Origin: Gloeobacteraceae cyanobacterium SOY_34_metabat_371 | GTDB taxonomy: Bacteria; Cyanobacteriota; Cyanobacteriia; Gloeobacterales; Anthocerotibacteraceae | NCBI GenBank assembly: GCA_031398925.1 | Contig: JANNOF010000131.1 | Coordinates: 1 to 47,816 of the forward strand | Reading direction: 5' to 3' | DNA: 47,816 nt | Part shown: one piece after another, positions 20,329-38,739 of the stretch | How the letters are laid out: the number at the start of each line of letters is the position of its first letter | Numbering within the stretch: the first letter of the stretch is position 1 | Made by a program: the position numbers and the translations under genes | The notes under the pieces: model-generated | Database searches by the model: none | What the model was told of the DNA's origin: nothing | Seen by the model: only the letters and a program-made list of their open reading frames with translations

Positions 20329-20613
20329 ATGCATTTGGAGCGACTTTTCTGCCTGGGGCTTGTGCTTGGCTCCCTAACCGTTGCCGTACGGGCTGATCCC
20401 GAAGTGACCGAAGAAGTAGCCCGTTTGGAACGCTTCAGTTATGCACGTTCTCCGGTAGATAATCGGGTGCTCACCCCAGGGGAACTAGTCCTAGAACGCG
20501 AATACCTCCAAACAGCACCCCCTAGCGAACCTAGCCCCCAATTAAAAGAACTCATTACCCTGCTCAGGCTCCGTAAGCTCCTGAAGTCAGTGATCCCGAT
20601 TGTGCCGATCTAA
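20329..20613 (+). CDS. Hypothetical small secreted protein
   Basis: 94-aa ORF with signal-like LFCLGLVLGSLTVAVRA. Convergent 4-nt overlap with the dnaE stop. No family recognised. Confidence 0.4.
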   Translation: MHLERLFCLGLVLGSLTVAVRADPEVTEEVARLERFSYARSPVDNRVLTPGELVLEREYLQTAPPSEPSPQLKELITLLRLRKLLKSVIPIVPI

Positions 20614-23600
20614 GACACAAGGGCTTTGATCTCAGCATGAAAGCCTTGGGAACGGAGACTTTGCACCGTAGCTTGGGGGTCTTTGACCCGAAATTGCGGG
20701 CCAAAACGCACCAGGCATTGACGATGAAGATGATTAATCCGGGCCACTACCGGAGCTTTACCCTGGTCTTCGGCGGTATTGAGGGCTAACTTCAGGCGTT
20801 GTTGGATCTGAATATCCTGGGCCTGATCTAAGGGCAGATCAACCACGACAATATGGACTTCTTCAACGGGTTCAGCATCCATGAGGATCAGTTGCGTCCG
20901 GTCATCCCGGCGGTCTACGCGGCCCCACAGCACCAATCTACGGTCTAGGGCTAAATGATGCTGCACCCGTTCAAAGACTTTAGGGAACACCACCACCTCC
21001 GCCGATCCTGTCCAGTCTTCTACGGTTAAGATTGCCATCCGGTCCCCTTTTTTAGTGACCGTTTGCTTCATTTCTAAAACCAGTACGATCATGCTGATAC
21101 TTTGTTCTTCTGCAACCTCGCCTAACTGGGCCAGCAGCACGGGGGCCAGATACTGGGAAGGTTCCTTCAGCGCATTAAGGGGATGATCGGAAATATAAAA
21201 ACCCAATAGTTCTTTTTCGTACTTAAGTTTTTCTTGGGGCGGAAAATCTTCGACCAAAACACTGAGCTGGGGAGCAGCACTGCTGACGGCCAGCATATCA
21301 AAGAGGCTGCCTTGACCTACGGCTTGGTCTTTGGCCCGTTGGGAAGCCCAATCGATCACCCCATCGAGATCCTGCAACAACTGTTTACGATTACTGTGGA
21401 GCTGATCGAGGGCCCCGCACTTAATTAATGCTTCTAGGGCCCGTTTATTTACCCCACTGAGGCGACTACATAGATCAGATAGGTCGTTAAACGATCCCGC
21501 TTCCCGGCGGACTTTAAGGATCTCTTCGATGACCCCTTCGCCGACGTTTTTAACTGCTCCCAAACCAAATAGGATGGCGCCCTTAACGGGGGTAAAATCA
21601 TTTTCCGAACGATTAATATCCGGCGGTTGAATGGGAATATTGAGGGTTGAACAATCGGCTAAATAACGCTGGACTTTATCTTGATCACCTTTGATCGAAC
21701 TCAATAACGCCGCTAGATACTCCACCGGATAGTGGGCCTTAAGATAGGCCGTCTGGTAAGTAATATAGCCGTAGGCCATGGAGTGGGATTTATTAAAGCA
21801 ATATTCGGCAAAAACCACCATTTGTTCAAACAGATCACGGGCAACTTCTTGGGCAACACCATTTTTAGCGGCACCGTCAATAAAAGTCTCGCGATGTTTT
21901 TCCATTTCTGAGAGTTTCTTTTTACCCATGGCGCGACGCAATAGATCCGCTTGCCCTAGGGAATAGCCCCCTAGATCTTGGGCAATGCGCATGATCTGTT
22001 CTTGATAAAGGATCGTGCCGTAGGTATCTTTTAGGATCGGTTGGAGTTCAGGACAGGCATATTGAATTTGGCGGGGATCATGTTTACGGGAAATGAAAAT
22101 CGGGATCATACCGGAATCTAAAGGCCCAGGGCGATAGAGGGCTAAAATGGCGCACACGTCATCAATACAGGAAGGCTTCAGGTCTTTAACAATCTGCTTC
22201 ATCCCAGAGGATTCCAATTGAAAGATCCCCGCCAGTTCCCCGGCACTCAACAGTTTATAGGTTTCGGGATCATCAATGGGAATGGTATCAATATCAATGC
22301 GTTGGCTATTGGTTTTAGCAATCCAATCAATGGCTTGCTCGATCAAAGTCAGGTTTCTAAGACCCAAAAAGTCCATTTTCAATAGACCTAGATCCGCAAT
22401 ATCTTCCATGTAGTACTGGGTGATCACTTGACCTTCTTTATTCCGTTGCAGGGGAACAATTTGATCAAGACAATCCCGTGAGATCACCACGCCAGCCGCA
22501 TGGACCCCATAGTTTTTGTTGACATTTTCTAGACGCAGGGCCATATCTAGCCAAGCGGTTACTTTGGGATCATTCAGGTAGGCTTGTTTAAATTCTGGTG
22601 CGGGCGTGTCATCGCCAATCATCACTTTGAGTTTGGCGGGTTTACCCCGTGATACCGGGATCATTTTAGCCATCTTATCCGCATCCCCGTAGGGAATATC
22701 CATTACCCGCGCCACATCCTTGAGTACCGCTTTAGACGTAAGACGATTAAACGTAATGATCTGGGCGACGTGACTGGTACCGTATTTCTGGGTCACATAC
22801 TCAATCAGTTCTTCACGGCGTTCGATGCAAAAATCCGTATCTATATCGGGCATTGATTTACGTTCAGGATTTAAAAATCGTTCAAAAAGCAGATCATATT
22901 TCACCGGATCAATATTGGTAATCCGTAGGGCATAGGCAACTAAAGATCCTGCGGCGGAGCCACGCCCAGGGCCGACGGGAATTTTTCGCTCTCGGGCAAA
23001 ACGAATATAATCCCAAACCACTAGAAAATAATTGGAAAAGCCCATTTTTTCAATGGTTTCAATCTCAAAGCGTAAGCGCTTGCGGTAAGGGTCCTGGTCT
23101 TCGTCCATAATCCCGCGCTCGAAAAAGCGTTCTTTTATCCCCTGATAAATGCAGTGCTCTAGAAAACTATCCGCAGTATATCCCTGGGGCACCGGATAGT
23201 TGGGCATCCGCGCTTCGCCAAAGAGTTTTTGATCGTAGGGTTCGATTTTAGCGCACACTTCTAAAGTTGTCTTAATCGCCGTGTTAACGGTTTCTTGATC
23301 GAGGTGATCGCGATATAGTTTCGCCATTTGATCCGCAGATTTAAGATATTCTGTGCCTGTGTAGCGCAATCGTTTTTCTTCGGTAATTAATTTACCTGTT
23401 TGAATACACAGTAAGGCATCGTGGGCACTGACATCCTCTGCACAGGTAAAGTGGGAATCATTGGTCGCAATGATCTTAATGCCTAATTCTTTACTGAGCC
23501 GGGTCAAGGCAACATTAACGATCCGGTCTTCTCGACTGCCATGATCTTGAATTTCTAAATAAAAGTCATCGCCAAAATGCTCTTGGTACCAGACCGCAAT

Positions 23601-24077
23601 TTCGCGGGCTTTATCCATGCGACCCTGCAACAGGGCTTGGGGAATCTCGCCCCCTAAACAGGCTGAGGTGACAATTAAGCCTTCTCGATACTGTTCTAAA
23701 AGGGGCTTATAAATACAGGGCCGCCGAAAGATTCCCTTACCGACTTCCCCTTCTAGGTGAGAAATTGTGACTAATTTCACTAAATTTTGATAGCCTTGAA
23801 AATTTTTGGCCAGGATCACCTGATGGTATTTGTGGATTCTACCGGCTTGCACCTTAGGATCGGCATTGACGATATAGCCTTCGACCCCAACGATGGGCTT
23901 GATCCCCGCCTTCAGACAGAGTTTGATCAGCTCTACCGCTCCATACATCACCCCGTGATCCGTCAGGGCAATCCCTGGCATCCCCAGTTGGCGGGCCTGT
24001 TCCACCAATTGCGGGAGCTGGCTCGCGCCATCTAACAGCGAGTATTCACTATGAACGTGTAAACCGACAAAGCTCAT
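20610..24077 (-). CDS. dnaE: DNA polymerase III alpha subunit (contiguous, no intein)
   Basis: 1155-aa ORF. N-terminal PHP domain FVGLHVHSEYSLLDGA, polymerase core (PDIDTDF, GLLKMDFLGLRNLT), HhH region and C-terminal OB fold. Confidence 0.95.
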   Translation of the reverse strand: MSFVGLHVHSEYSLLDGASQLPQLVEQARQLGMPGIALTDHGVMYGAVELIKLCLKAGIKPIVGVEGYIVNADPKVQAGRIHKYHQVILAKNFQGYQNLVKLVTISHLEGEVGKGIFRRPCIYKPLLEQYREGLIVTSACLGGEIPQALLQGRMDKAREIAVWYQEHFGDDFYLEIQDHGSREDRIVNVALTRLSKELGIKIIATNDSHFTCAEDVSAHDALLCIQTGKLITEEKRLRYTGTEYLKSADQMAKLYRDHLDQETVNTAIKTTLEVCAKIEPYDQKLFGEARMPNYPVPQGYTADSFLEHCIYQGIKERFFERGIMDEDQDPYRKRLRFEIETIEKMGFSNYFLVVWDYIRFARERKIPVGPGRGSAAGSLVAYALRITNIDPVKYDLLFERFLNPERKSMPDIDTDFCIERREELIEYVTQKYGTSHVAQIITFNRLTSKAVLKDVARVMDIPYGDADKMAKMIPVSRGKPAKLKVMIGDDTPAPEFKQAYLNDPKVTAWLDMALRLENVNKNYGVHAAGVVISRDCLDQIVPLQRNKEGQVITQYYMEDIADLGLLKMDFLGLRNLTLIEQAIDWIAKTNSQRIDIDTIPIDDPETYKLLSAGELAGIFQLESSGMKQIVKDLKPSCIDDVCAILALYRPGPLDSGMIPIFISRKHDPRQIQYACPELQPILKDTYGTILYQEQIMRIAQDLGGYSLGQADLLRRAMGKKKLSEMEKHRETFIDGAAKNGVAQEVARDLFEQMVVFAEYCFNKSHSMAYGYITYQTAYLKAHYPVEYLAALLSSIKGDQDKVQRYLADCSTLNIPIQPPDINRSENDFTPVKGAILFGLGAVKNVGEGVIEEILKVRREAGSFNDLSDLCSRLSGVNKRALEALIKCGALDQLHSNRKQLLQDLDGVIDWASQRAKDQAVGQGSLFDMLAVSSAAPQLSVLVEDFPPQEKLKYEKELLGFYISDHPLNALKEPSQYLAPVLLAQLGEVAEEQSISMIVLVLEMKQTVTKKGDRMAILTVEDWTGSAEVVVFPKVFERVQHHLALDRRLVLWGRVDRRDDRTQLILMDAEPVEEVHIVVVDLPLDQAQDIQIQQRLKLALNTAEDQGKAPVVARINHLHRQCLVRFGPQFRVKDPQATVQSLRSQGFHAEIKALVS

Positions 24078-24193: not shown

Positions 24194-25375
24194 ATGTCCA
24201 TTATTGAAACCCGTGCTGACCGTATGGTCCTCAGTTTGGGGCCGCATCATCCTTCGATGCACGGGGTCCTGCGGCTGATCGTTACCCTCAACGGCGAAAA
24301 CGTCGAGGACTGTGAACCCGTCTTGGGTTATTTACACCGGGGTATGGAAAAAATTGCTGAAAATCGCACCATTGTGCAGTATTTGCCCTACGTTACCCGT
24401 TGGGATTACGCCGCGACCATGTTCACCGAGGCCATTACCTGCATGGCCCCGGAGCAATTGGCGGATGTGGCGGTTCCGCGTCGCGCTCGGTATATCCGCG
24501 TGATCATGATGGAACTTTCACGCATTGCCTCCCATTTGCTTTGGCTTGGCCCTTTTATGATCGATTTGGGGGCTAACTCGCCCTTCTTTTATATTTTCCG
24601 GGAACGTGAACTTATTTATGATCTTTTTGAGGCCGCGACCGGCATGCGGATGATGCATAACTATTTTCGCATTGGCGGTGTCGCAGCCGATCTACCCTAC
24701 GGTTGGGTTGATAAATGCCGTGACTTTTGTGAATATTTTCCGCCCAAAGTTGATGAATACGAACGCATCATCACCAATAATCCGATCTTTCGCAAACGGG
24801 TTGAGGGTCTGGGTATTATCTCCAGCGAAGAAGCCATTAATTGGGGTTTATCGGGTCCTATGCTCCGGGGATCGGGGATCAATTGGGATCTGCGGCGTGT
24901 AGATAGTTACGAGATCTACGATGAAGTGGATTTTGAAGTTGCCTACGAAACCGCCGGTGATGTTATGGCCCGCTATGTGATCCGCATGAAGGAAATGCGC
25001 GAATCCACCAAAATCATTTTGCAATGTTTAGATCAACTGCCCGGTGGCCCCTACGAAAGTTTAGAAGCCAAGCGCATTAGCGAAGGCCCTAAAAGTTCTT
25101 GGAATAGCTTTGACTATCAGTTTATTGGCAAAAAATCCGCCCCTAACTTCAAGATCCCCCAAGGAGAACACTACGTTCGGGTTGAAGCCCCCAAGGGTGA
25201 GTTAGGGGTCTACCTGATCGGTGATGGCACCCAGATGCCCTGGCGCTTCAAGATCCGGCCCCCTGGGTTTGTCAATCTGGGGCCGCTTTCCCAAAGTCTC
25301 CAAGGCTGCAAGATCGCGGATCTAATGGCGATTTTAGGGTCAGTAGATATCATCATGGGCGAAGTGGATCGCTAG
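24194..25375 (+). CDS. ndhH: NAD(P)H-quinone oxidoreductase (NDH-1) subunit H
   Basis: 393-aa [45 protein letters not shown] and the C-terminal [14 protein letters not shown] are canonical NdhH/NuoD motifs. Confidence 0.95.
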
Positions 25376-25444
25376 GGTCTGCCGTCGGATCGGGGAATAG
25401 CAATAAGGGGCTTAAAATAAAGGGAAACTCTGGTAAGGCTTACC

Positions 25445-26821
25445 GTGTTACGGCAACTGACACCGGCTACCACCTTGATCGAGATCTACAAAACTCTTTC
25501 GACCGAGCCACTTGAGCAACCGGAGGAGTTAAAAGCATTTTATCGTTCAGAGCTAAATCAGGCGCGGGGAAAGGATATTGTTGCACGTATGCAACGGTTG
25601 CTAGCAAATGCATACCAATCCGTGCCCTATCGCACTTTCCTGATGGGACATCTCGGGGTAGGTAAGTCTACGGAAATGAGTCGGCTAATTCAACAGATCC
25701 AAGGGCAGTTTGAAGTGATCCGGCTAAGTGCCAAAGAACTTGACCCAGTAGGATTTAAGGTTTTTGATGTGTTGATCTTGATGATTATGGAAATCACTGA
25801 ACGTACCATCAAGATCCCTGGTGTAAATAGCCCATCTTTTAATAGACAGTTAGAAGAATTCCAGCGTTGGTTTGATGTAGAAAAGCGTTTGTTTACCGAA
25901 GCAACGGATGTAGCAGGGAGTGTGGTTGCTGGTGCAGGAATGACTGGAGAAAACCCAATCGCTAAGATATTCGGCTTCTTTGGGCAGTTGCGCGGTGAAA
26001 TCAAATACGCTACGACCCGTAAGCGTGAAGTGGTCGAGTATCGCTTGAGCCGTATTCCAGAACTAGTGAGTTTAGCAAACAAGATTCTAATCGAATGCAA
26101 TCAACTACTCGGTGAAGTAAATAACAAAGAATGGATCTTTATTTGGGAGGATTTTGATAAACGGATCGCGCCTGAACGGATCGAAGAACTCTTTATTACT
26201 AATGGTAGTGTGTTTGCTGATTTGAATGTCCATGCTATTTTTAATTTACCCATTGGCTTGGGCTATTCAGGACGTGCTAAGCAATTACCATTTGACTGTG
26301 TGGCGGTTCCTGACACACCAATTTTTACCGCTGATCATCAACTAAATGAAGATGGTCTTCTGGCACTACGGGCTATTGTCAAGACTAGGGTCCAATTAAA
26401 TCTATTTGCATCTGACCAACTCGATAGACTGATCATTGCTTCTGGGGGCAATATCCGCGATCTTTTTTCGATGATTATCTTTGCCGCGACTTCTGCTGCA
26501 GAGTGTATTTCAGAGCCAGATGTAACCCAGGCTATTAATGATCTACGTTTACAGTACCGTAACCGTTTAGGAACAAGCGAATATGATAAAGATAAAATTG
26601 AATATTCAGAGAAAGCTAAGCGACTGATCGCGATTTATAACCGAGAGCCTGAGTCCGATATTCCTAGTCCGGTATTGTATGTCTTACTGCGTTCACGGGC
26701 GGTCTTAGAATTTAACGGTAGGGGTTGGTTTGGAGTACATCCGTTGGTAGTAGATATCCTTGCCGATCAGGGGCGGATCGAACCGGATGCTACAGGGAAG
26801 GTGCCCGGTGGTTCTAACTAG
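25445..26821 (+). CDS. STAND/ORC-Cdc6-like P-loop NTPase (NBD, helical, winged-helix-like), function unknown
   Basis: 458-aa ORF with a GTG start. Walker A GHLGVGKST, Walker-B-like WIFIWEDFD, GGNIRD sensor-like motif, and a C-terminal wH-like segment (LYVLLRSRAVLEFNGRGWFGVHPLV). GC is markedly lower than the flanks (sampled lines 32-35%). Confidence 0.7.
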   Translation: MLRQLTPATTLIEIYKTLSTEPLEQPEELKAFYRSELNQARGKDIVARMQRLLANAYQSVPYRTFLMGHLGVGKSTEMSRLIQQIQGQFEVIRLSAKELDPVGFKVFDVLILMIMEITERTIKIPGVNSPSFNRQLEEFQRWFDVEKRLFTEATDVAGSVVAGAGMTGENPIAKIFGFFGQLRGEIKYATTRKREVVEYRLSRIPELVSLANKILIECNQLLGEVNNKEWIFIWEDFDKRIAPERIEELFITNGSVFADLNVHAIFNLPIGLGYSGRAKQLPFDCVAVPDTPIFTADHQLNEDGLLALRAIVKTRVQLNLFASDQLDRLIIASGGNIRDLFSMIIFAATSAAECISEPDVTQAINDLRLQYRNRLGTSEYDKDKIEYSEKAKRLIAIYNREPESDIPSPVLYVLLRSRAVLEFNGRGWFGVHPLVVDILADQGRIEPDATGKVPGGSN

Positions 26822-27989
26822 CCCTACGCCGGGATCAACCGCAGATATCCAACAACGTTTGGTGAAGTGGTGTCTGGGTACGGAACGAGGTTTAGCGCGG
26901 GTTGAGTATTTTGCAGACTCCTACCGTCAAGCGGTTATTGCTCATTTAAAAACTCAGCTCTCGGATCAAAATATTCCTTTTTATCAAATTAAACTACCTG
27001 ATCATACTGAGGCTGCCCAAGTCTTATATTTTTTGCGCGAACAATTGGAGCACTATACTTCTGGCGTAGTCTCGATTGTAGGATTTCATACTGCCTTTAC
27101 ACCAGAAGATCAGCAAGAGGGATTAAGCGGGCTGAACTTTAATCGTGAACTGTGGGCGAATTTTCCACTACGGCAAATCTGGTGGTTTACACCAGGGTTT
27201 AGTCACCTGAGCCAAGAGGAGATGCCAGATCTCAATTCGTGGTTTATTCTGCGGCTTCGGCTTTTAGAGAGTCTACCGCAAGCTTTTATTCCAGCAGAAG
27301 AGATTCAATTAACAAGTCTATCTACTTCTAAAGCTACCGATACAAAACGCCGTACGGATTATCTTTTGATGCGATTTAACCAAGCTAAGCAAAAGAATGC
27401 TGATCCATTGAGCACGCTAAAGCTCTTTGGTCTCCCTGCACTCCAAGGACTTTTGAATAGTGGAGACTATACAGAAGGACGACGATTTAACCAACAACTT
27501 GAATCACAACTTAATGCTGTACTTACCGCAAAAGAAACATCATTATTGATAATTTGGGCCGAGATCTATAAGCAGTTCAGTGAATTTGAAAAAGCTAAAG
27601 GATTGTATCAACATTTAATTCAGATCTTTGATGAATTTATACAGATAGATTCTGATGATGTCGATGCCCACTACAACAAAGGGAATGTGCTACGGAGTTT
27701 AGGAGACTTACAGACAGATCTAGAGCAAATCAGTGAAGCCTTAGCAAGCTATCAAGCCGCGATTAATTCCTTTGATCGGGCATTACAGTTAGCTCCTGAC
27801 CATCTAGTAATCCTCAGGAATCAAGGTAAGACCTGTGAGCGATTAGGATCATTACTAGAGAAGAACGGAGATCAAGCTATTGCTCAGTATCAATTGGCTA
27901 TTGCTGCTTACAATCATCTGTTGGAATTGGTACCGAGTGATCAAACGATCCGTCAGCGGCGTGATGGGTTGGCGATTCTTATCCACTGA
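26808..27989 (+). CDS. TPR-repeat protein with an N-terminal alpha/beta domain lacking a Walker A
   Basis: The ORF overlaps the upstream NTPase 3' end. An in-frame GTG at 26808 is preceded by GGAAGG (alternatives ATG 26787, TTG 26760). The C-terminal third has TPR-like units (AHYNKGNVLRSLGDL...ALASYQAAINSFDRALQLAPDH; NQGKTCERLG...AIAQYQLAIAAYNHLLELVPSD). Low GC (a sampled line is 33%). Confidence 0.65.
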   Translation: MVLTSPTPGSTADIQQRLVKWCLGTERGLARVEYFADSYRQAVIAHLKTQLSDQNIPFYQIKLPDHTEAAQVLYFLREQLEHYTSGVVSIVGFHTAFTPEDQQEGLSGLNFNRELWANFPLRQIWWFTPGFSHLSQEEMPDLNSWFILRLRLLESLPQAFIPAEEIQLTSLSTSKATDTKRRTDYLLMRFNQAKQKNADPLSTLKLFGLPALQGLLNSGDYTEGRRFNQQLESQLNAVLTAKETSLLIIWAEIYKQFSEFEKAKGLYQHLIQIFDEFIQIDSDDVDAHYNKGNVLRSLGDLQTDLEQISEALASYQAAINSFDRALQLAPDHLVILRNQGKTCERLGSLLEKNGDQAIAQYQLAIAAYNHLLELVPSDQTIRQRRDGLAILIH

Positions 27990-28031: not shown

Positions 28032-28946
28032 TCAGGCTTCTTTTTCTTTCAACCGTTGATTCTGTTGATATTCTCGCCAAATCACCAACAGAATCGAAGC
28101 ATTAAAAATACTAGAGTAGGCCCCGGAGACAAAGCCAACGATCAGGGCCAATGAGAAATCGCGGAGCGTGGGCCCACCAAAGAAAAATAGGGCAAACAAA
28201 GTCAGTAGGGCGGTGACAGAGGTATTGATCGAACGACCAAAGGTTTGATTAACCGATTGATTGACGATCTCAGCAAAGGTTTTTTTACGGGAAATAAACT
28301 TGACATTTTCCCGGACCCGGTCAAAAACGATTACCGTATCATTGACCGAAAATCCTGCAATGGTTAGGAGCGCCACAATAAAGAGAGAATCGATCTCAGT
28401 GCCAAAAACAAGACCTAAAATGGCAAAAAAGCCCGTAGTCACTAAAACGTCATGGATAAGGGCCAAAATAGCGAAAAAGGCATAATCCCACTGAAAGCGG
28501 ATGGTCATATAAATATAGATCCCCAATAGGGTCACGATTAAGGCCAGCACACTATTTAAAAGTAATTCTTGACCTAACGTAGGTCCAACCGATTCAATTT
28601 TTTCAATCGTAAAGGTTTTTAAATTAGTCTGCATTAGCTTCTGAACATCTAAGCGTTCCTCTTGGGTGAGGGGCTTAGAGCGGATCAGCATTTCTTTTTC
28701 ACCGGAAGTCTGGATGATACTGCTCCCCAAGTCTTTTTCTGTCAATACCGCCCGGACTTCAGCCACCGAAGGCGCTTGATCCTTAAATTGCAGCTGCCAG
28801 AGCGTCCCGCCGGTAAAATCAATGCCCAGCCGTAACGGTGAACCAATAGTTAGGGCGGAATAGATCATCGCGATGATCCCTAGGCCGATCACGCCCGCAG
28901 AAATCCCTAACCACAGCCCACGTTTACCGACAACATCAATATTCAC
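28032..28946 (-). CDS. secF: Protein-export membrane protein SecF
   Basis: GIDFTGGT, FFAILALIHDVL, AGFSVNDTVIVFDRVREN and SINTSVTALLT are canonical SecF motifs. The probable start is GTG 28946 (VNIDVVGKRGLW...). The ORF track extends to GTG 29057. Confidence 0.85.
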   Translation of the reverse strand: MNIDVVGKRGLWLGISAGVIGLGIIAMIYSALTIGSPLRLGIDFTGGTLWQLQFKDQAPSVAEVRAVLTEKDLGSSIIQTSGEKEMLIRSKPLTQEERLDVQKLMQTNLKTFTIEKIESVGPTLGQELLLNSVLALIVTLLGIYIYMTIRFQWDYAFFAILALIHDVLVTTGFFAILGLVFGTEIDSLFIVALLTIAGFSVNDTVIVFDRVRENVKFISRKKTFAEIVNQSVNQTFGRSINTSVTALLTLFALFFFGGPTLRDFSLALIVGFVSGAYSSIFNASILLVIWREYQQNQRLKEKEA

Positions 28947-29059
28947 AGGATTGATCCAGACATTAAACTCAGTGTGCCACGCTCTTGCCCCTGTAGGCCA
29001 CCTGCTTATGGGGGGCAAGGCGGAGTACAATAATAGACCGTCCTGAAAAAATTGCACCC

Positions 29060-29218
29060 ATGCGTCAACGTGACCAAGAGATCACCCGCCGCCGGCACCG
29101 TAAAGCCAAGCTTGCCCGCCTCCGGGTCCGCCATGCCGAAGCAAACACCGCCGCCGCCAAACAAGAGATTGCCGATAAGATCCGCCGGGTTTCGGTCTAT
29201 GCTCCGGTTGAACTTTAA
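29060..29218 (+). CDS. Candidate 52-aa arginine/lysine-rich small protein
   Basis: Not in the ORF track. ATG 29060 to TAA 29216-29218: MRQRDQEITRRRHRKAKLARLRVRHAEANTAAAKQEIADKIRRVSVYAPVEL. Third codon positions are C/G-biased as in neighbouring genes. Its stop overlaps the pepF stop convergently. Confidence 0.35.
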   Translation: MRQRDQEITRRRHRKAKLARLRVRHAEANTAAAKQEIADKIRRVSVYAPVEL

Positions 29219-30918
29219 AGTTTGAGCACTCTTTGGGCCTGTTGCACCACATCGGCCAAAGCCCCCGGACTAAAGGGTGAAACTAAACCTGCGGTGCGTA
29301 CCAACTCCTGAAAAGGAGCGGATCCCCCCAGTCGGCATAGCTTGACATAGTCTTGGAGCGCCCCAGCGAAATCCTGTTCGGCCCGCACCCAAAATTGGAG
29401 GGCACAACAACCCGCTAGGGTGTAGTCGATGTAGTAAAAAGGCTCGCCATAAATATGTCCTTGGGCCTGCCAGCGTCCGCCCATCGCTGGGTGGGTTAGA
29501 TCGCCGTAGTCACGCCAGGGTAAGTACAGGGCCTCCATCGTTTGCCACATGTCATGACGCTCTTGGGCACTGGCCGTGGGGTTGGCATAGACCAAGTGCT
29601 GGAAGTGATCTACAGCCACACCGTAGGGTAAAAAGAGTAACGACTCGGCTAAATGAATCTCCCGGAAGCGCTGGGCTTCTTCGGGACCAAAGAAATAATC
29701 CATATAGGGCCAAGTCAGAAATTCCAAACTCATGGAATGGATCTCGCAGGACTCTAACGTGGGCCAAAGATATTCAGAGACAGAGCCGTGGCGACTTTGC
29801 CAGCCCTGGAAGGCATGGCCCATTTCGTGGGTAAAAACCTCTACATCGCCTTTGGTCCCGTTGAAGTTAGCAAAGACAAAGGGCAAGCCGTAGCTTGGAA
29901 AACTAGTGCAAAATCCCCCGCCCGCTTTACCAGGTCGGTTTTTAAGATCTAGTAATTGCTTATCGACCAAGAGCCGAAAAAAGCTGCTGAGTTCCGGGTC
30001 CATGCTGTCAAACATGCGCTGGGCTTGGATCAACATCCAGTCATGATCCCCTTGGGGTTTAGGATTGCCCCTGAGATCAAAAACCGCCTCATCCCAAGCC
30101 ATCAAACGATCTACGCCTAGGCGCTCTGCTTGACGAGCCAAGATCTTTTGGGCTAGAGGTACTACTTCCTGTCGGACTTGGTCCCGGTAGCGCTCCACAT
30201 CCTGTTGGGTATAGTCCACCCGGCGCATGCGCTTGTAGCCCAGGGGAATGTAGTTTTCGTAGCCCAGTTTCTGCGCCATTCCCTGACGGACCTGGACTAG
30301 GTCTCCATAAATGCGGTCTAAATCAGCTTGATGGGCGGCAAAAAATTCCCACCGCACCTGTTCGGCGTCATGGCGGGTGGCGCGGTCCGCATCTTCACAA
30401 AAGCGTCGGATTCCCGAAAGATTGAGGGTTTCACCCCGAAAATTTAACGCAGCGGCGGCCAAAAGAGCGGTGTACTCGGCTTTGAGCTTAGATTCCTGGA
30501 TCAGATCAGCCTCAATAACCGGATCAAACGTCAAAATATCCGATTCCCAAAGCGCAAAAACCTGTGCTCCCAAAGCTGCCTCGAGCTGAGGACGGTGGGG
30601 ACTAATCAGCAATTGTTTTTTGATCCGTACGGTCCAGTCGGTGATCTTGGGGATCAGTTCATCACAGTAATCCCGCGCTTTTTGGTAGCTTTCGTTTTGC
30701 GTATCTTGGTCAAAACGCAACCAAATTAGGGCCGACCAAGTATCGAGGCTGCGCCGGAGGTCTTCCCATTGCGCTATAACCTGGAGCTGATCTTGCGGCG
30801 TTACGGCCTCTTGAAAAGCCTGTTCTAGGAGTGAAAACTCCCTTTGGATCGATTCGGGACTAGGGGACTCAGGTTTGATTTGCGTAAAGGAAACGGGTTC
30901 GTGTAGGGTGACAGACAT
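29215..30918 (-). CDS. pepF: M3B-family oligoendopeptidase F-like metallopeptidase
   Basis: 567-aa ORF with the zinc motif FTHEMGHAF and a downstream E ligand region (LESCEIHSMSLE). Length and layout are typical of PepF. Confidence 0.85.
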   Translation of the reverse strand: MSVTLHEPVSFTQIKPESPSPESIQREFSLLEQAFQEAVTPQDQLQVIAQWEDLRRSLDTWSALIWLRFDQDTQNESYQKARDYCDELIPKITDWTVRIKKQLLISPHRPQLEAALGAQVFALWESDILTFDPVIEADLIQESKLKAEYTALLAAAALNFRGETLNLSGIRRFCEDADRATRHDAEQVRWEFFAAHQADLDRIYGDLVQVRQGMAQKLGYENYIPLGYKRMRRVDYTQQDVERYRDQVRQEVVPLAQKILARQAERLGVDRLMAWDEAVFDLRGNPKPQGDHDWMLIQAQRMFDSMDPELSSFFRLLVDKQLLDLKNRPGKAGGGFCTSFPSYGLPFVFANFNGTKGDVEVFTHEMGHAFQGWQSRHGSVSEYLWPTLESCEIHSMSLEFLTWPYMDYFFGPEEAQRFREIHLAESLLFLPYGVAVDHFQHLVYANPTASAQERHDMWQTMEALYLPWRDYGDLTHPAMGGRWQAQGHIYGEPFYYIDYTLAGCCALQFWVRAEQDFAGALQDYVKLCRLGGSAPFQELVRTAGLVSPFSPGALADVVQQAQRVLKL

Positions 30919-38058: not shown

Positions 38059-38739
38059 ATGGTTCTACTATCTCAAAAAATAATCTACCCTGAGTCCGAT
38101 GGTCAACCAATGGCAGATAATACGGAGCAATTCAATTGGATTGTCCTGATTAAAGAAAACTTAGAAATACTTTTTGCCCATGATCCAGTAGTTTTTGTAG
38201 CAGGAGATCTATTGTGGTATCCCATTCAAGAAGATAACAAACTACATCAAGCCCCTGATGTTCTAGTTGCTTTTGGACGACCCAAGGGCAAGCGGGGTAG
38301 TTATCAGCAGTGGAAAGAAGACAATATAGCGCCGCAAGTGGTGTTTGAGATTCTTTCCCCTGGCAATACCCTCAAAGAAATGGCGAAAAAACTTAATTTT
38401 TATCATCGTTATGGGGTCCAAGAATATTACTTATATGATCCCGATAAAAACGATCTAGGGGGTTGGTTGAGAATAGACAATAATCTAGAAGTCATTGAAG
38501 AAATCGAGGGTTGGGTAAGCCCCCGTTTGGGGATCCGTTTTGTGATGACCGCAGATATTTTAGAAATTTATGGCCCTGATGATCAAAAATTTTTAAGTTC
38601 TGTACAGTTAGCACAACGAGCACAGCAAGCTGAACAAGGACAAGTCATCGAACGACAACGGGCTGAACGATCTGAGCAACGAGCAGAACGTCTAGCAGCT
38701 AAATTACATGCACTCGGCATAGATCCCGATCAAAGCTGA
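38059..38739 (+). CDS. Uma2-family (DUF820) PD-(D/E)xK endonuclease-like protein
   Basis: YPESDGQPMADNT, PDVLVAFG and VVFEILSPGNT...K...YHRYGVQEYYLYDP are hallmark Uma2 motifs. GC is lower than neighbouring genes. Confidence 0.85.
   Translation: MVLLSQKIIYPESDGQPMADNTEQFNWIVLIKENLEILFAHDPVVFVAGDLLWYPIQEDNKLHQAPDVLVAFGRPKGKRGSYQQWKEDNIAPQVVFEILSPGNTLKEMAKKLNFYHRYGVQEYYLYDPDKNDLGGWLRIDNNLEVIEEIEGWVSPRLGIRFVMTADILEIYGPDDQKFLSSVQLAQRAQQAEQGQVIERQRAERSEQRAERLAAKLHALGIDPDQS

Follow-up and report, generated by a model that had tools for sequence, protein, structure and literature searches.

A two-gene cassette of an ORC/STAND-type ATPase and a TPR protein as a possible minimal member of an NLR-associated conflict family

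Introduction

Bacterial NLR-like receptors are usually regarded as single-chain machines. The STAND NTPases reportedly share a nucleotide-binding domain (NBD), a helical part, and a winged helix, and are said to be fused to a repeat sensor and to effector or adaptor domains. Here, we describe a two-gene cassette from Gloeobacteraceae cyanobacterium SOY_34_metabat_371 in which the ATPase (ORF1) and the repeat protein (ORF2) are encoded separately. The cassette lies on contig JANNOF010000131.1 (assembly GCA_031398925.1), whose 47,816 nt were analyzed as a whole and are referred to as the window. ORF1 occupies positions 25445-26821 and ORF2 positions 26808-27989, both on the forward strand. Our overall reading, which we hold at a probability of about 60%, is that the pair is a minimal form of an NLR-type conflict or immune family in which an ATPase would gate a repeat-sensor partner.

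Compared by its logic, the nearest published analogue of the pair is the nSTAND2 two-gene operon, followed by the MoxR-vWA ternary systems. In the nSTAND2 system, an active STAND NTPase is encoded with an NTPase-like partner whose motifs are eroded, and the two are predicted to form a hetero-oligomeric ring (Kaur, Iyer, Burroughs & Aravind 2021, PMC8195603, Fig. 6C). The likeness to the pair lies in a mobile two-gene operon that joins an active NTPase to a P-loop-less constant module with variable fusions. However, recognizable nSTAND2 modules are present in both genes of the nSTAND2 system, where GT4 or HEPN effectors make up the variable fusions. In the pair, gene 2 has only a domain of ~155 amino acids in which no sequence relationship to gene 1 is detectable, and it continues variably into TPR, NB-ARC-TPR, TIR-NB-ARC-TPR, or STAND-WD40.

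According to a prediction by Kaur et al. (2020, PMC7159879), MoxR provides the MoxR-vWA conflict systems with a threshold or licensing step that depends on NTP. The ternary forms of these systems, which include VMAP, iSTAND, and iSTAND2, occur mainly in cyanobacteria and in other bacteria with a multicellular or social lifestyle (PMC7159879, PMC8195603). Their logic resembles that proposed for the pair, with a constant NTPase that gates a partner with AP-ATPase, TIR, or TPR modules. The window cassette differs in having no MoxR, no vWA, and no third component, and its ATPase is of the ORC/STAND type.

Avs/AVAST, bNACHT, and TIR-NLR proteins are single-gene systems. Relatives of gene 2 show the same effector-NTPase-repeat order (TIR-NB-ARC-TPR), but in the pair family an additional ATPase encoded upstream and a further domain at the N-terminus are obligatory. 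The ORF2 of the window has neither NB-ARC nor an effector and so does not combine effector, NTPase, and sensor in one protein in the manner of Avs. A description or experimental study of the pair was not found in the literature, though one may exist elsewhere, and neither component has an entry in Pfam, NCBIfam, or PADLOC or a representative in the Protein Data Bank. We rate the pair as an undescribed variant of the NTPase-centered, NLR-associated conflict systems and not as a categorically new thing.

Conservation of the gene pair

One genome per GTDB species was scanned (185,579 species genomes). An ORF1 relative was found in 260 stretches, of which 80 were kept. The kept loci (43-50% identity) come from Cyanobacteriota, Acidobacteriota (Bryobacterales, Solibacter), Planctomycetota, Omnitrophota, Armatimonadota, Competibacteraceae, Accumulibacter, and others. 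By tblastn, the N-terminal domain of ORF2 (the N-domain, first ~160 residues) lies directly downstream of the ORF1 homologue in 79 of the 80 loci, and the contig of the single unpaired locus stops within ORF1. All-against-all clustering of the flanking ORFs gave no third conserved gene. The original prediction, made by reading the window sequence, had treated the two genes as a unit and proposed checking whether their homologues co-occur, which they do. We are highly confident in the pairing and in the definition of the family.

The junction between the two genes (26795-26821, forward strand) is equally characteristic. A GGGAAGG element (26795-26801) is followed after 6 nt by the GTG start codon of ORF2 (26808-26810), which straddles the Gly-Gly codons GGT GGT of ORF1, and ORF1 ends at a TAG stop codon (26819-26821). 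The resulting overlap is 14 nt. An overlap of the same size is found in 50 of the 79 paired loci (49 with GTG, 1 with ATG), where the GTG lies across Gly-Gly codons (GGT GGN) behind a GGGGAGG-like element. Eleven more loci, mostly from Acidobacteriota, start gene 2 with an ATG right after the ORF1 stop codon. The reading frame of ORF2 is open from 26760 to 27989, and the gene caller (protein P0121) used an in-frame ATG at 26787, which gives a protein of 400 amino acids and an overlap of 35 nt. Because the GTG-over-Gly-Gly overlap is family-wide, the start at 26808 is favored. The 14-nt overlap and the translational coupling suggested from it in the window thus have a geometry that is conserved across phyla. 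Judged by its gene structure, the cassette is a self-contained and apparently translationally coupled two-gene module.

The pair in the window is intact, and every residue that is invariant in the family is kept in both proteins. Compared with the closest relative (locus L081), ORF1 has a nonsynonymous distance (dN) of 0.062, a synonymous distance (dS) of 0.74, and a dN/dS of ~0.08; the values for ORF2 are 0.25, 1.0, and ~0.25. Both genes are therefore under purifying selection, and the protein of gene 2 changes ~4 times faster than ORF1.

Some genomes hold the cassette twice. Two paralogous cassettes on different contigs were seen in the metagenome-assembled genome J06638_20 (L004 and L046) and in Solibacteraceae SbA4 (L031 and L039).

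The ATPase of gene 1

ORF1 has a GTG start codon and encodes 458 amino acids. It is the constant partner of the pair and belongs to a family of ~465-amino acid proteins with at least 298 clusters, which are 43-52% identical along their full length. The mean column identity in alignments of this family is 57-62%. All members are stand-alone proteins, and the repeats sit on the separate gene 2. A PDTP motif and a C-terminal WFGVHPLVVD motif are invariant, as is most of SGGN.RDL in a 30-sequence alignment.

No curated family in Pfam, NCBIfam, PADLOC, or PHROGs matched ORF1, and sequence searches of the Protein Data Bank (PDB) returned P-loop noise. An end-to-end match to a housekeeping ATPase family, which would have counted against the original prediction, was not found in these four collections. 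In the Pfam scan of ORF1, no NB-ARC, NACHT, nSTAND1-6, or MalT-type match was found at E <= 1. Among 30 family members scanned against Pfam, 23 had weak AAA_16 matches and one matched nSTAND3 at E 0.051.

The AlphaFold2 model of ORF1, built with 118 homologues, has a mean predicted local distance difference test score (pLDDT) of 91.3 and a predicted TM-score of 0.89. It places a helical N-terminus before an AAA+ core with a helical insertion, followed by a helical lid and a winged helix. The best Foldseek matches in the PDB are PAB2304 (2qen), CED-4 (2a5y), ORC1/ORC4/Cdc6, TnsC, Apaf-1 (5juy), RFC, RuvB, RdrA, and SSO1545, at E values from 2e-5 to 1e-3 and TM-scores of 0.3-0.49. CED-4 and Apaf-1 match at E ~1e-4, and the TM-scores of ORC1, ORC4, and Cdc6 are 0.3-0.4. 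PAB2304/SSO1545 (ATPase_2), ORC/Cdc6, and CED-4/Apaf-1 share the AAA+ core, helical lid, and winged helix with ORF1, but at TM-scores of 0.3-0.49 and 9-14% identity, and they have neither the ~95-amino acid insertion nor the 56-amino acid N-terminus of ORF1.

The N-terminal helical region (residues 1-56; 25445-25612) contains four short helices in the model and the near-invariant or invariant columns TPATxL..YKTL..EPL..EEL.AFYR.E.N..RG. The Walker A motif, or P-loop, GHLGVGKST (residues 68-76; 25646-25672) follows strand b1 (residues 63-68). Residues G68, H69, G71, G73, K74, and T76 of this motif are invariant in 118 sequences. The Walker B strand WIFIWEDFD (residues 230-238; 26132-26158) coincides with strand b3 (residues 229-235). 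Here, E235 is invariant in 118 sequences, D238 is invariant in 30 sequences, and D236 is nearly invariant. The two motifs thus lie on adjacent strands of an a/b core, as in active AAA+/P-loop NTPases.

Between helix a2 and strand b3, the secondary structure and pLDDT profile of the model delimit a helical insertion of ~95 amino acids (residues 130-226; 25832-26122) with a disordered Gly/Ala-rich loop (residues 155-168). Going by established AAA+ anatomy, its position appears to correspond to that of the initiator-specific motif in AAA+ proteins of the ORC/DnaA type, though the insertion is far larger than the canonical motif.

The helical lid carries a sensor-2-like arginine motif, SGGNIRD (residues 333-339; 26441-26461), between helices 325-333 and 337-350. 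S333 and G335 are invariant, and G334, N336, R338, and D339 are nearly so. The protein ends in a winged-helix-like domain (residues 387-441; 26603-26767), which includes WFGVHPLVVDIL. It is modeled as helices 387-398, 402-405, and 409-416, a strand hairpin at 420-431, and a helix at 433-441. W428, H432, P433, L434, and V435 are shared by all 118 aligned sequences.

KAP NTPases reportedly have transmembrane helices inserted in the NTPase domain. ORF1 shows neither of the defining features of that group, which are a match to the KAP_NTPase model and the inserted transmembrane helices. KAP_NTPase (PF07693) matched neither ORF1 nor the 30 family members, and only relatives at 22-26% identity match it, weakly. 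The insertion of ORF1 is modeled as soluble helices and a disordered loop with no KAP-type transmembrane helices, and no dedicated transmembrane prediction was made.

The Walker A, Walker B-like, and GGNIRD motifs (starting at residues 68, 230, and 334) were found where the original prediction had placed them. Its assignment of ORF1 to the STAND or ORC-Cdc6 class, with the order NBD, helical, and winged helix, agrees with the model and the Foldseek matches. The structural evidence therefore supports placing ORF1 among the STAND/ORC-Cdc6-class AAA+ ATPases, with all three of these parts present. Two other STAND hallmarks are absent: ORF1 is not fused in one chain to a repeat sensor and an effector or adaptor, and it has no significant match to a curated STAND model. 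Assignment to one specific named STAND or ORC clade is not supported.

The partner protein of gene 2

ORF2 encodes 393 amino acids and consists of the family-specific N-domain, a linker, and a TPR array. Its AlphaFold2 model, from a 42-sequence alignment, has a mean pLDDT of 91.6.

The N-domain is an a/b domain (residues 10-152; 26835-27263) with the modeled order a0-b1-a1-b2-a2-b3-a3-b4-a4-b5. Only two residues separate b1 from a1, so the domain has no P-loop, and b3 has no acidic end, so there is no acidic Walker B. R113, Q123, W125, W126, D141, and F146 are invariant. The domain is the hallmark of the ORF1 family's partners and sits at the start of the gene right behind the ATPase. A search with the N-domain profile found 365 clusters (50% identity) among 1.84 billion representatives, in proteins of 126-1156 amino acids. 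The domain is N-terminal in all but one of 150 listed matches, and the exception (P0281) probably has an extended or mis-called start. Another homologue search with the same profile gave only 26 proteins, mostly incomplete, which added little.

The N-domain profile had no match in Pfam or the PDB, and the domain also has no match in PADLOC. A match of the ORF2 N-terminus to a known enzymatic domain would also have counted against the original prediction; none was found in Pfam or the PDB. Comparisons by hhalign with the full ORF1 family (probability 0.2%), with the ORF1 nucleotide-binding domain, and with an NB-ARC profile from gene-2 relatives were negative throughout. The idea that the N-domain is a recognizable paralogue of ORF1 or NB-ARC is therefore unsupported at the sequence level. 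The sole non-TPR Foldseek match of the whole ORF2 model is the clamp-loader delta subunit (1jr3_D, rank 33, TMq 0.28) among dominating TPR matches. In delta, an inactive subunit, helical domains follow an AAA+-like domain free of nucleotide, and the protein works in a hetero-oligomer with active ATPases. The match is weak and comes with no sequence similarity; it suggests a hypothesis and not a classification. The original prediction had described alternating strands and helices with no P-loop at the N-terminus of ORF2, which holds, and had speculated about an inactivated NTPase-like module. Such an NTPase-like or AAA+-like reading is plausible at the fold level only, with no sequence or profile signal.

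A disordered linker with pLDDT below 50 follows (residues 156-172; 27273-27323). The remaining helical region (residues 175-392; 27330-27983) has ~11 modeled helices, which form a conserved helical linker of ~60-70 amino acids and then a short TPR array. The helical linker also aligns in TIR-type relatives. Within residues 260-340 (27585-27827), Pfam detects TPRs above gathering thresholds, with TPR_11 at 33.3 bits (cut-off 26.8), TPR_2 at 32.8 (27), and TPR_14 at 30.5 (23.5), and TPR_17 and TPR_8 also pass. The best Foldseek matches are kinesin-light-chain, BtubC, and consensus or designed TPRs, as expected of a TPR protein, and NCBIfam adds weak matches of the TPR part to Ycf3 and MamA-type adaptors. 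The TPR units that had been read by eye at the C-terminus of ORF2 are thus borne out.

In two Leptolyngbya iicbica assemblies with identical ORF1 homologues, gene 2 differs in length, at 565 amino acids in one (L083, 11406-13103) and at 426 + 80 amino acids in the other (L084, 11406-12894). Either the TPR array varies in repeat number or one of the assemblies is wrong.

Gene 2 architectures and related systems

Among the loci, 64 partners are complete. All 64 have kinesin light chain-type TPRs (TPR_10 / TPR_12); 10 also have NB-ARC, and 54 consist of the N-domain and TPRs only. Three architectures are distinguished. In most loci, including the window, the N-domain is followed by the helical linker and TPRs. 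In the second, NB-ARC stands between the N-domain and the TPRs. The third comprises the N-domain, linker, TIR_2 (~residues 250-385), NB-ARC, DUF7779, and TPRs, and this TIR form was found in 8 of 9 scanned members longer than 1050 amino acids. Locus L085, on a 7.1-Mb contig, has a TIR-containing pair, and the Accumulibacter pair near 1,365,400 of NC_013194.1 is of a DUF7779-TPR kind with no TIR detected. The effectors of the nSTAND2 system, GT4 and HEPN, were outside the 25 most frequent of 72 Pfam families in the 64 partners, and neither was found in 19 long partners scanned singly.

Gene 2 proteins mostly have 420-650 amino acids and reach 1156, and the 393 amino acids of the window protein are among the shortest of the complete members. 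Two complete partners are of similar size (L066, 376; L029, 386), and the closest full-length relative, P0122, has 579.

The original prediction had proposed that the NTPase and TPR parts of a single NLR are divided here between two proteins. The relatives speak against this, with a gene 2 that carries its own NB-ARC, TIR-NB-ARC, or nSTAND1. Because a complete TIR-NLR gene 2 keeps both the N-domain and the upstream ATPase, the view of ORF1 as simply an NTPase that was split off an NLR is not supported. Comparison of these architectures marks it as a separate, additionally conserved partner ATPase.

The superfamily extends beyond the loci of the species scan. By tblastn against plasmids, ORF1 relatives were found in Nostoc, Acaryochloris, and Calothrix at 22-26% identity over ~90% of their length, and these distant relatives have weak ATPase_2 matches. 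Six plasmid loci were inspected, and in most of them a giant WD40 protein follows the ORF1-like ATPase gene. On Acaryochloris pMB06, the ATPase and partner genes share 4 nt, and the partner protein consists of an N-domain-like region, nSTAND1 (residues 511-837), and WD40. The N-termini of these partners matched the ORF2 N-domain profile with 75% probability for Acaryochloris (E 2.5e-5) and 40% for Nostoc (E 3e-4), and they share N..RE and PDL.SW motifs with the ORF2 N-domain. The WD40 partners on Nostoc plasmids (L167, 7572-13106; L170, 6478-11248) are annotated as 'ribosome assembly protein 4', which is almost certainly a WD40-driven misannotation. On pMB06, which is a conjugative plasmid, a run of NB-ARC, TIR, and TPR genes (L168, 1-5481) lies directly upstream of the ATPase-WD40 pair and looks like a cluster of NLR-type genes.

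A further relative is a fusion. Plasmid p057_J of Nostoc sp. C057 encodes a 974-amino acid 'SAV_2336 N-terminal domain-related protein' (L169, 4324-7248), directly downstream of a MoxR ATPase gene, and its C-terminal 430 amino acids form an ORF1-like module. The module matches the ORF1 family by hhalign (99.7%, E 3e-25) and has the motifs EPLTTPEEL, GHRGGGKTTEL, and SGGIMRDL, so that both the N-terminal motif and the SGGNIRD motif of ORF1 (here SGGIMRD) recur in it. Going by its motifs, it is apparently active as an ATPase. A vWA-like motif was read by eye in the 974-amino acid protein, with no Pfam vWA match. Because the ORF1-like module forms part of this MoxR-adjacent protein, the ORF1 ATPase family is linked to the MoxR-vWA ternary systems. 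A small ORF after the fusion gene was considered as an N-domain and rejected.

Proposed function and alternatives

Taken together, the members of the gene-pair family most probably make up a conflict or immune system of the NLR type. The copy in the window would be a minimal member, with sensor and switch and no built-in effector. In the proposed mechanism, the N-domain would be the docking surface that binds the partner to the ATPase in a roughly fixed stoichiometry, and it may slot into the ATPase oligomer like the inactive subunit of clamp loaders or ORC. By binding or hydrolyzing ATP, ORF1 would then control whether the repeat-sensor protein assembles or is activated, which would amount to an NTP-dependent threshold or licensing step. 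In TIR-bearing members, the output would be NAD+-derived. In the window pair, it may come from the ATPase oligomer itself, through the conserved N-terminus, the helical insertion, or the winged helix, or from partners in trans. Whether the biological role is defense against phages or other mobile genetic elements is, in our estimate, an even bet. A broader version of the reading proposes a helper-ATPase layer in prokaryotic NLR immunity, in which an ORC/clamp-loader-like AAA+ ATPase co-assembles with a P-loop-less, AAA+-like N-domain at the head of TPR, NB-ARC-TPR, TIR-NB-ARC-TPR, or STAND-WD40 sensors and licenses or loads them; the minimal pair would be a stand-alone sensor-switch, or a decoy or regulator that signals via NLR-like proteins in trans. 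We regard this version as rather unlikely.

Several observations weigh against an immune role or against parts of the mechanism. No consistent defense-island setting was found: 162 Pfam families were detected in the 118 proteins that flank 30 loci, each at most 4 times. Homologues on viral contigs (IMG/VR) were not found. An effector domain was not found in ORF1 or ORF2 in Pfam, NCBIfam, PADLOC, or PHROGs. No empty ndhH-secF site was found either, in collections that contain no close relative of the host and in which synteny is not comparable. The AAA+-like character of the N-domain rests on the order of its elements and one low-TM Foldseek match, and the profile comparisons are negative. Finally, the pairwise distances of ORF1 and the N-domain are correlated with r = 0.85 (0 of 999 permutations as high), which is expected of any co-inherited operon and is no proof of contact.

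The original prediction was of a true split NLR, in which ORF1 is the only nucleotide-binding oligomerization module, ORF2 is the detached TPR arm, and the effector is unknown or acts in trans. The window itself fits this picture, as do all partners with no NTPase of their own (54 of 64), the layout of ORF1 with its matches to CED-4 and Apaf-1, and the tight coupling of the genes, which suggests a fixed stoichiometry. However, the same pair exists with NB-ARC, TIR-NB-ARC, or nSTAND1 inside gene 2, the ORF1 module is also found fused to a vWA-like protein beside MoxR, and the N-domain profile resembles neither ORF1 nor NB-ARC. We consider a true split NLR unlikely. A non-immune role, in which an AAA+ ATPase and a TPR adaptor serve as an assembly or remodeling factor or as a signaling scaffold and the TIR and NB-ARC variants are secondary, is more improbable still. 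It would agree with the housekeeping neighbors here and at other loci, with the lack of an effector and of a PADLOC match, with the weak Ycf3/MamA-type matches, and with the strong purifying selection on ORF1. The distribution of the pair argues otherwise, as it is rare and patchy (260 stretches in 185,579 species genomes), occurs in non-phototrophs, is present twice in some genomes, and has an atypical codon composition in the window. Moreover, gene 2 evolves faster and varies in repeat number, and the TIR, NB-ARC, and WD40 variants and the MoxR-vWA link are typical of conflict systems.

The short ORF2 also raises the question of decay. As one of the shortest complete members, with a closest full-length relative of 579 amino acids, it could be the truncated remnant of a longer NLR-like gene in a non-functional pair. 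Such a remnant would hardly be expected to have intact ORFs, all invariant residues, dN/dS values of 0.08 and 0.25, and a preserved junction, and other complete partners are equally small; decay is very improbable. Least credible of all is the view that ORF1 serves transposition (TnsC/IstB-like) or replication (Orc1/Cdc6-like) and that ORF2 is its accessory protein. The TnsC, ORC, and Cdc6 matches in Foldseek are level with the STAND matches, and UniRef names the homologues 'Orc1-like AAA ATPase domain-containing protein'. Against this, searches gave no transposase, terminal inverted repeats, target duplications, or third conserved gene; gene 2 encodes a TPR or NLR protein, and no homologue lies on a viral contig.

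Species-representative genomes contain at least 260 loci of the gene-pair family, and its partner domain forms 365 clusters at 50% identity. If the ATPase gates the sensor, an NTP-dependent licensing step would be added to NLR biology, as comparative genomics predicts for the MoxR-vWA systems, and the family would offer a small, tractable two-gene model for it. Defining the ATPase family and the N-domain would also better annotate proteins that are now called 'hypothetical', 'TPR repeat protein', or, in the case of the sister family with WD40 repeats, 'ribosome assembly protein 4'. For the window locus, the conclusion is narrower. The pair there is intact and probably acquired, it lacks an effector, and its biological role is putative. 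The absence of a recognizable effector and of a match to a named defense system, both of which had been anticipated, was upheld, with no PADLOC match for either protein.

Genomic context of the cassette

In the window, the cassette is preceded by dnaE (20610-24077, reverse strand) and ndhH (24194-25375, forward strand) and followed by secF (28032-29057, reverse strand) and an M3-type oligopeptidase gene, pepF (29215-30918, reverse strand). The contexts of the other loci differ, with ordinary genes of metabolism or housekeeping as the usual neighbors. MazE/ParE and transposase fragments adjoin one TIR-type locus. PADLOC matches in the flanks of the 30 loci are sporadic and partly generic, and the proposed check for defense islands found no recurrent defense family there.

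The GC content of the cassette is 0.435, compared to 0.507 +/- 0.019 for windows of equal size elsewhere, and is the minimum of the window. At third codon positions, the GC content (GC3) is 0.402 in ORF1 and 0.372 in ORF2, compared to about 0.53 elsewhere and a range of 0.47-0.59 in the other long ORFs, ORF 38059-38739 excepted. The GC content of the 60-nt lines at 25741, 26101, 27541, and 24241 was rechecked as 0.35, 0.317, 0.333, and 0.60. These are the values from which the GC content had been said to collapse; the values are exact and the cassette is significantly the lowest in the window, but "collapse" is too strong a word.

Nucleotide similarity to L081, whose ORF1 is 89% identical in amino acids, starts at 25407. 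A 5' leader (25407-25444, forward strand) with an AAGG Shine-Dalgarno-like element before the GTG of ORF1 thus travels with the cassette. The 170 nt upstream in L081 match neither ndhH nor any other sequence of the window. Because of its atypical composition, its phyletic scatter, and this different upstream flank, the cassette was probably acquired horizontally, as had been proposed. No direct or inverted repeats above chance, tRNA, Rfam family, or transposase was found in its flanks.

A record of the exact NdhH protein was not found, and the best match among 589 metagenome relatives is 77% identical. At none of the best 80 metagenome ndhH loci (<=77% identity) was the cassette or dnaE, secF, or pepF found at a distance of up to 6 kb. 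The host appears to belong to a poorly sampled or divergent cyanobacterial lineage.

One other gene in the window is compositionally unusual. ORF 38059-38739 (forward strand, 226 amino acids) has a GC3 of 0.314, the lowest of the window, and may be a second compositionally foreign gene. By eye, it resembles a cyanobacterial Uma2-family PD-(D/E)xK endonuclease, which we presume it to be.

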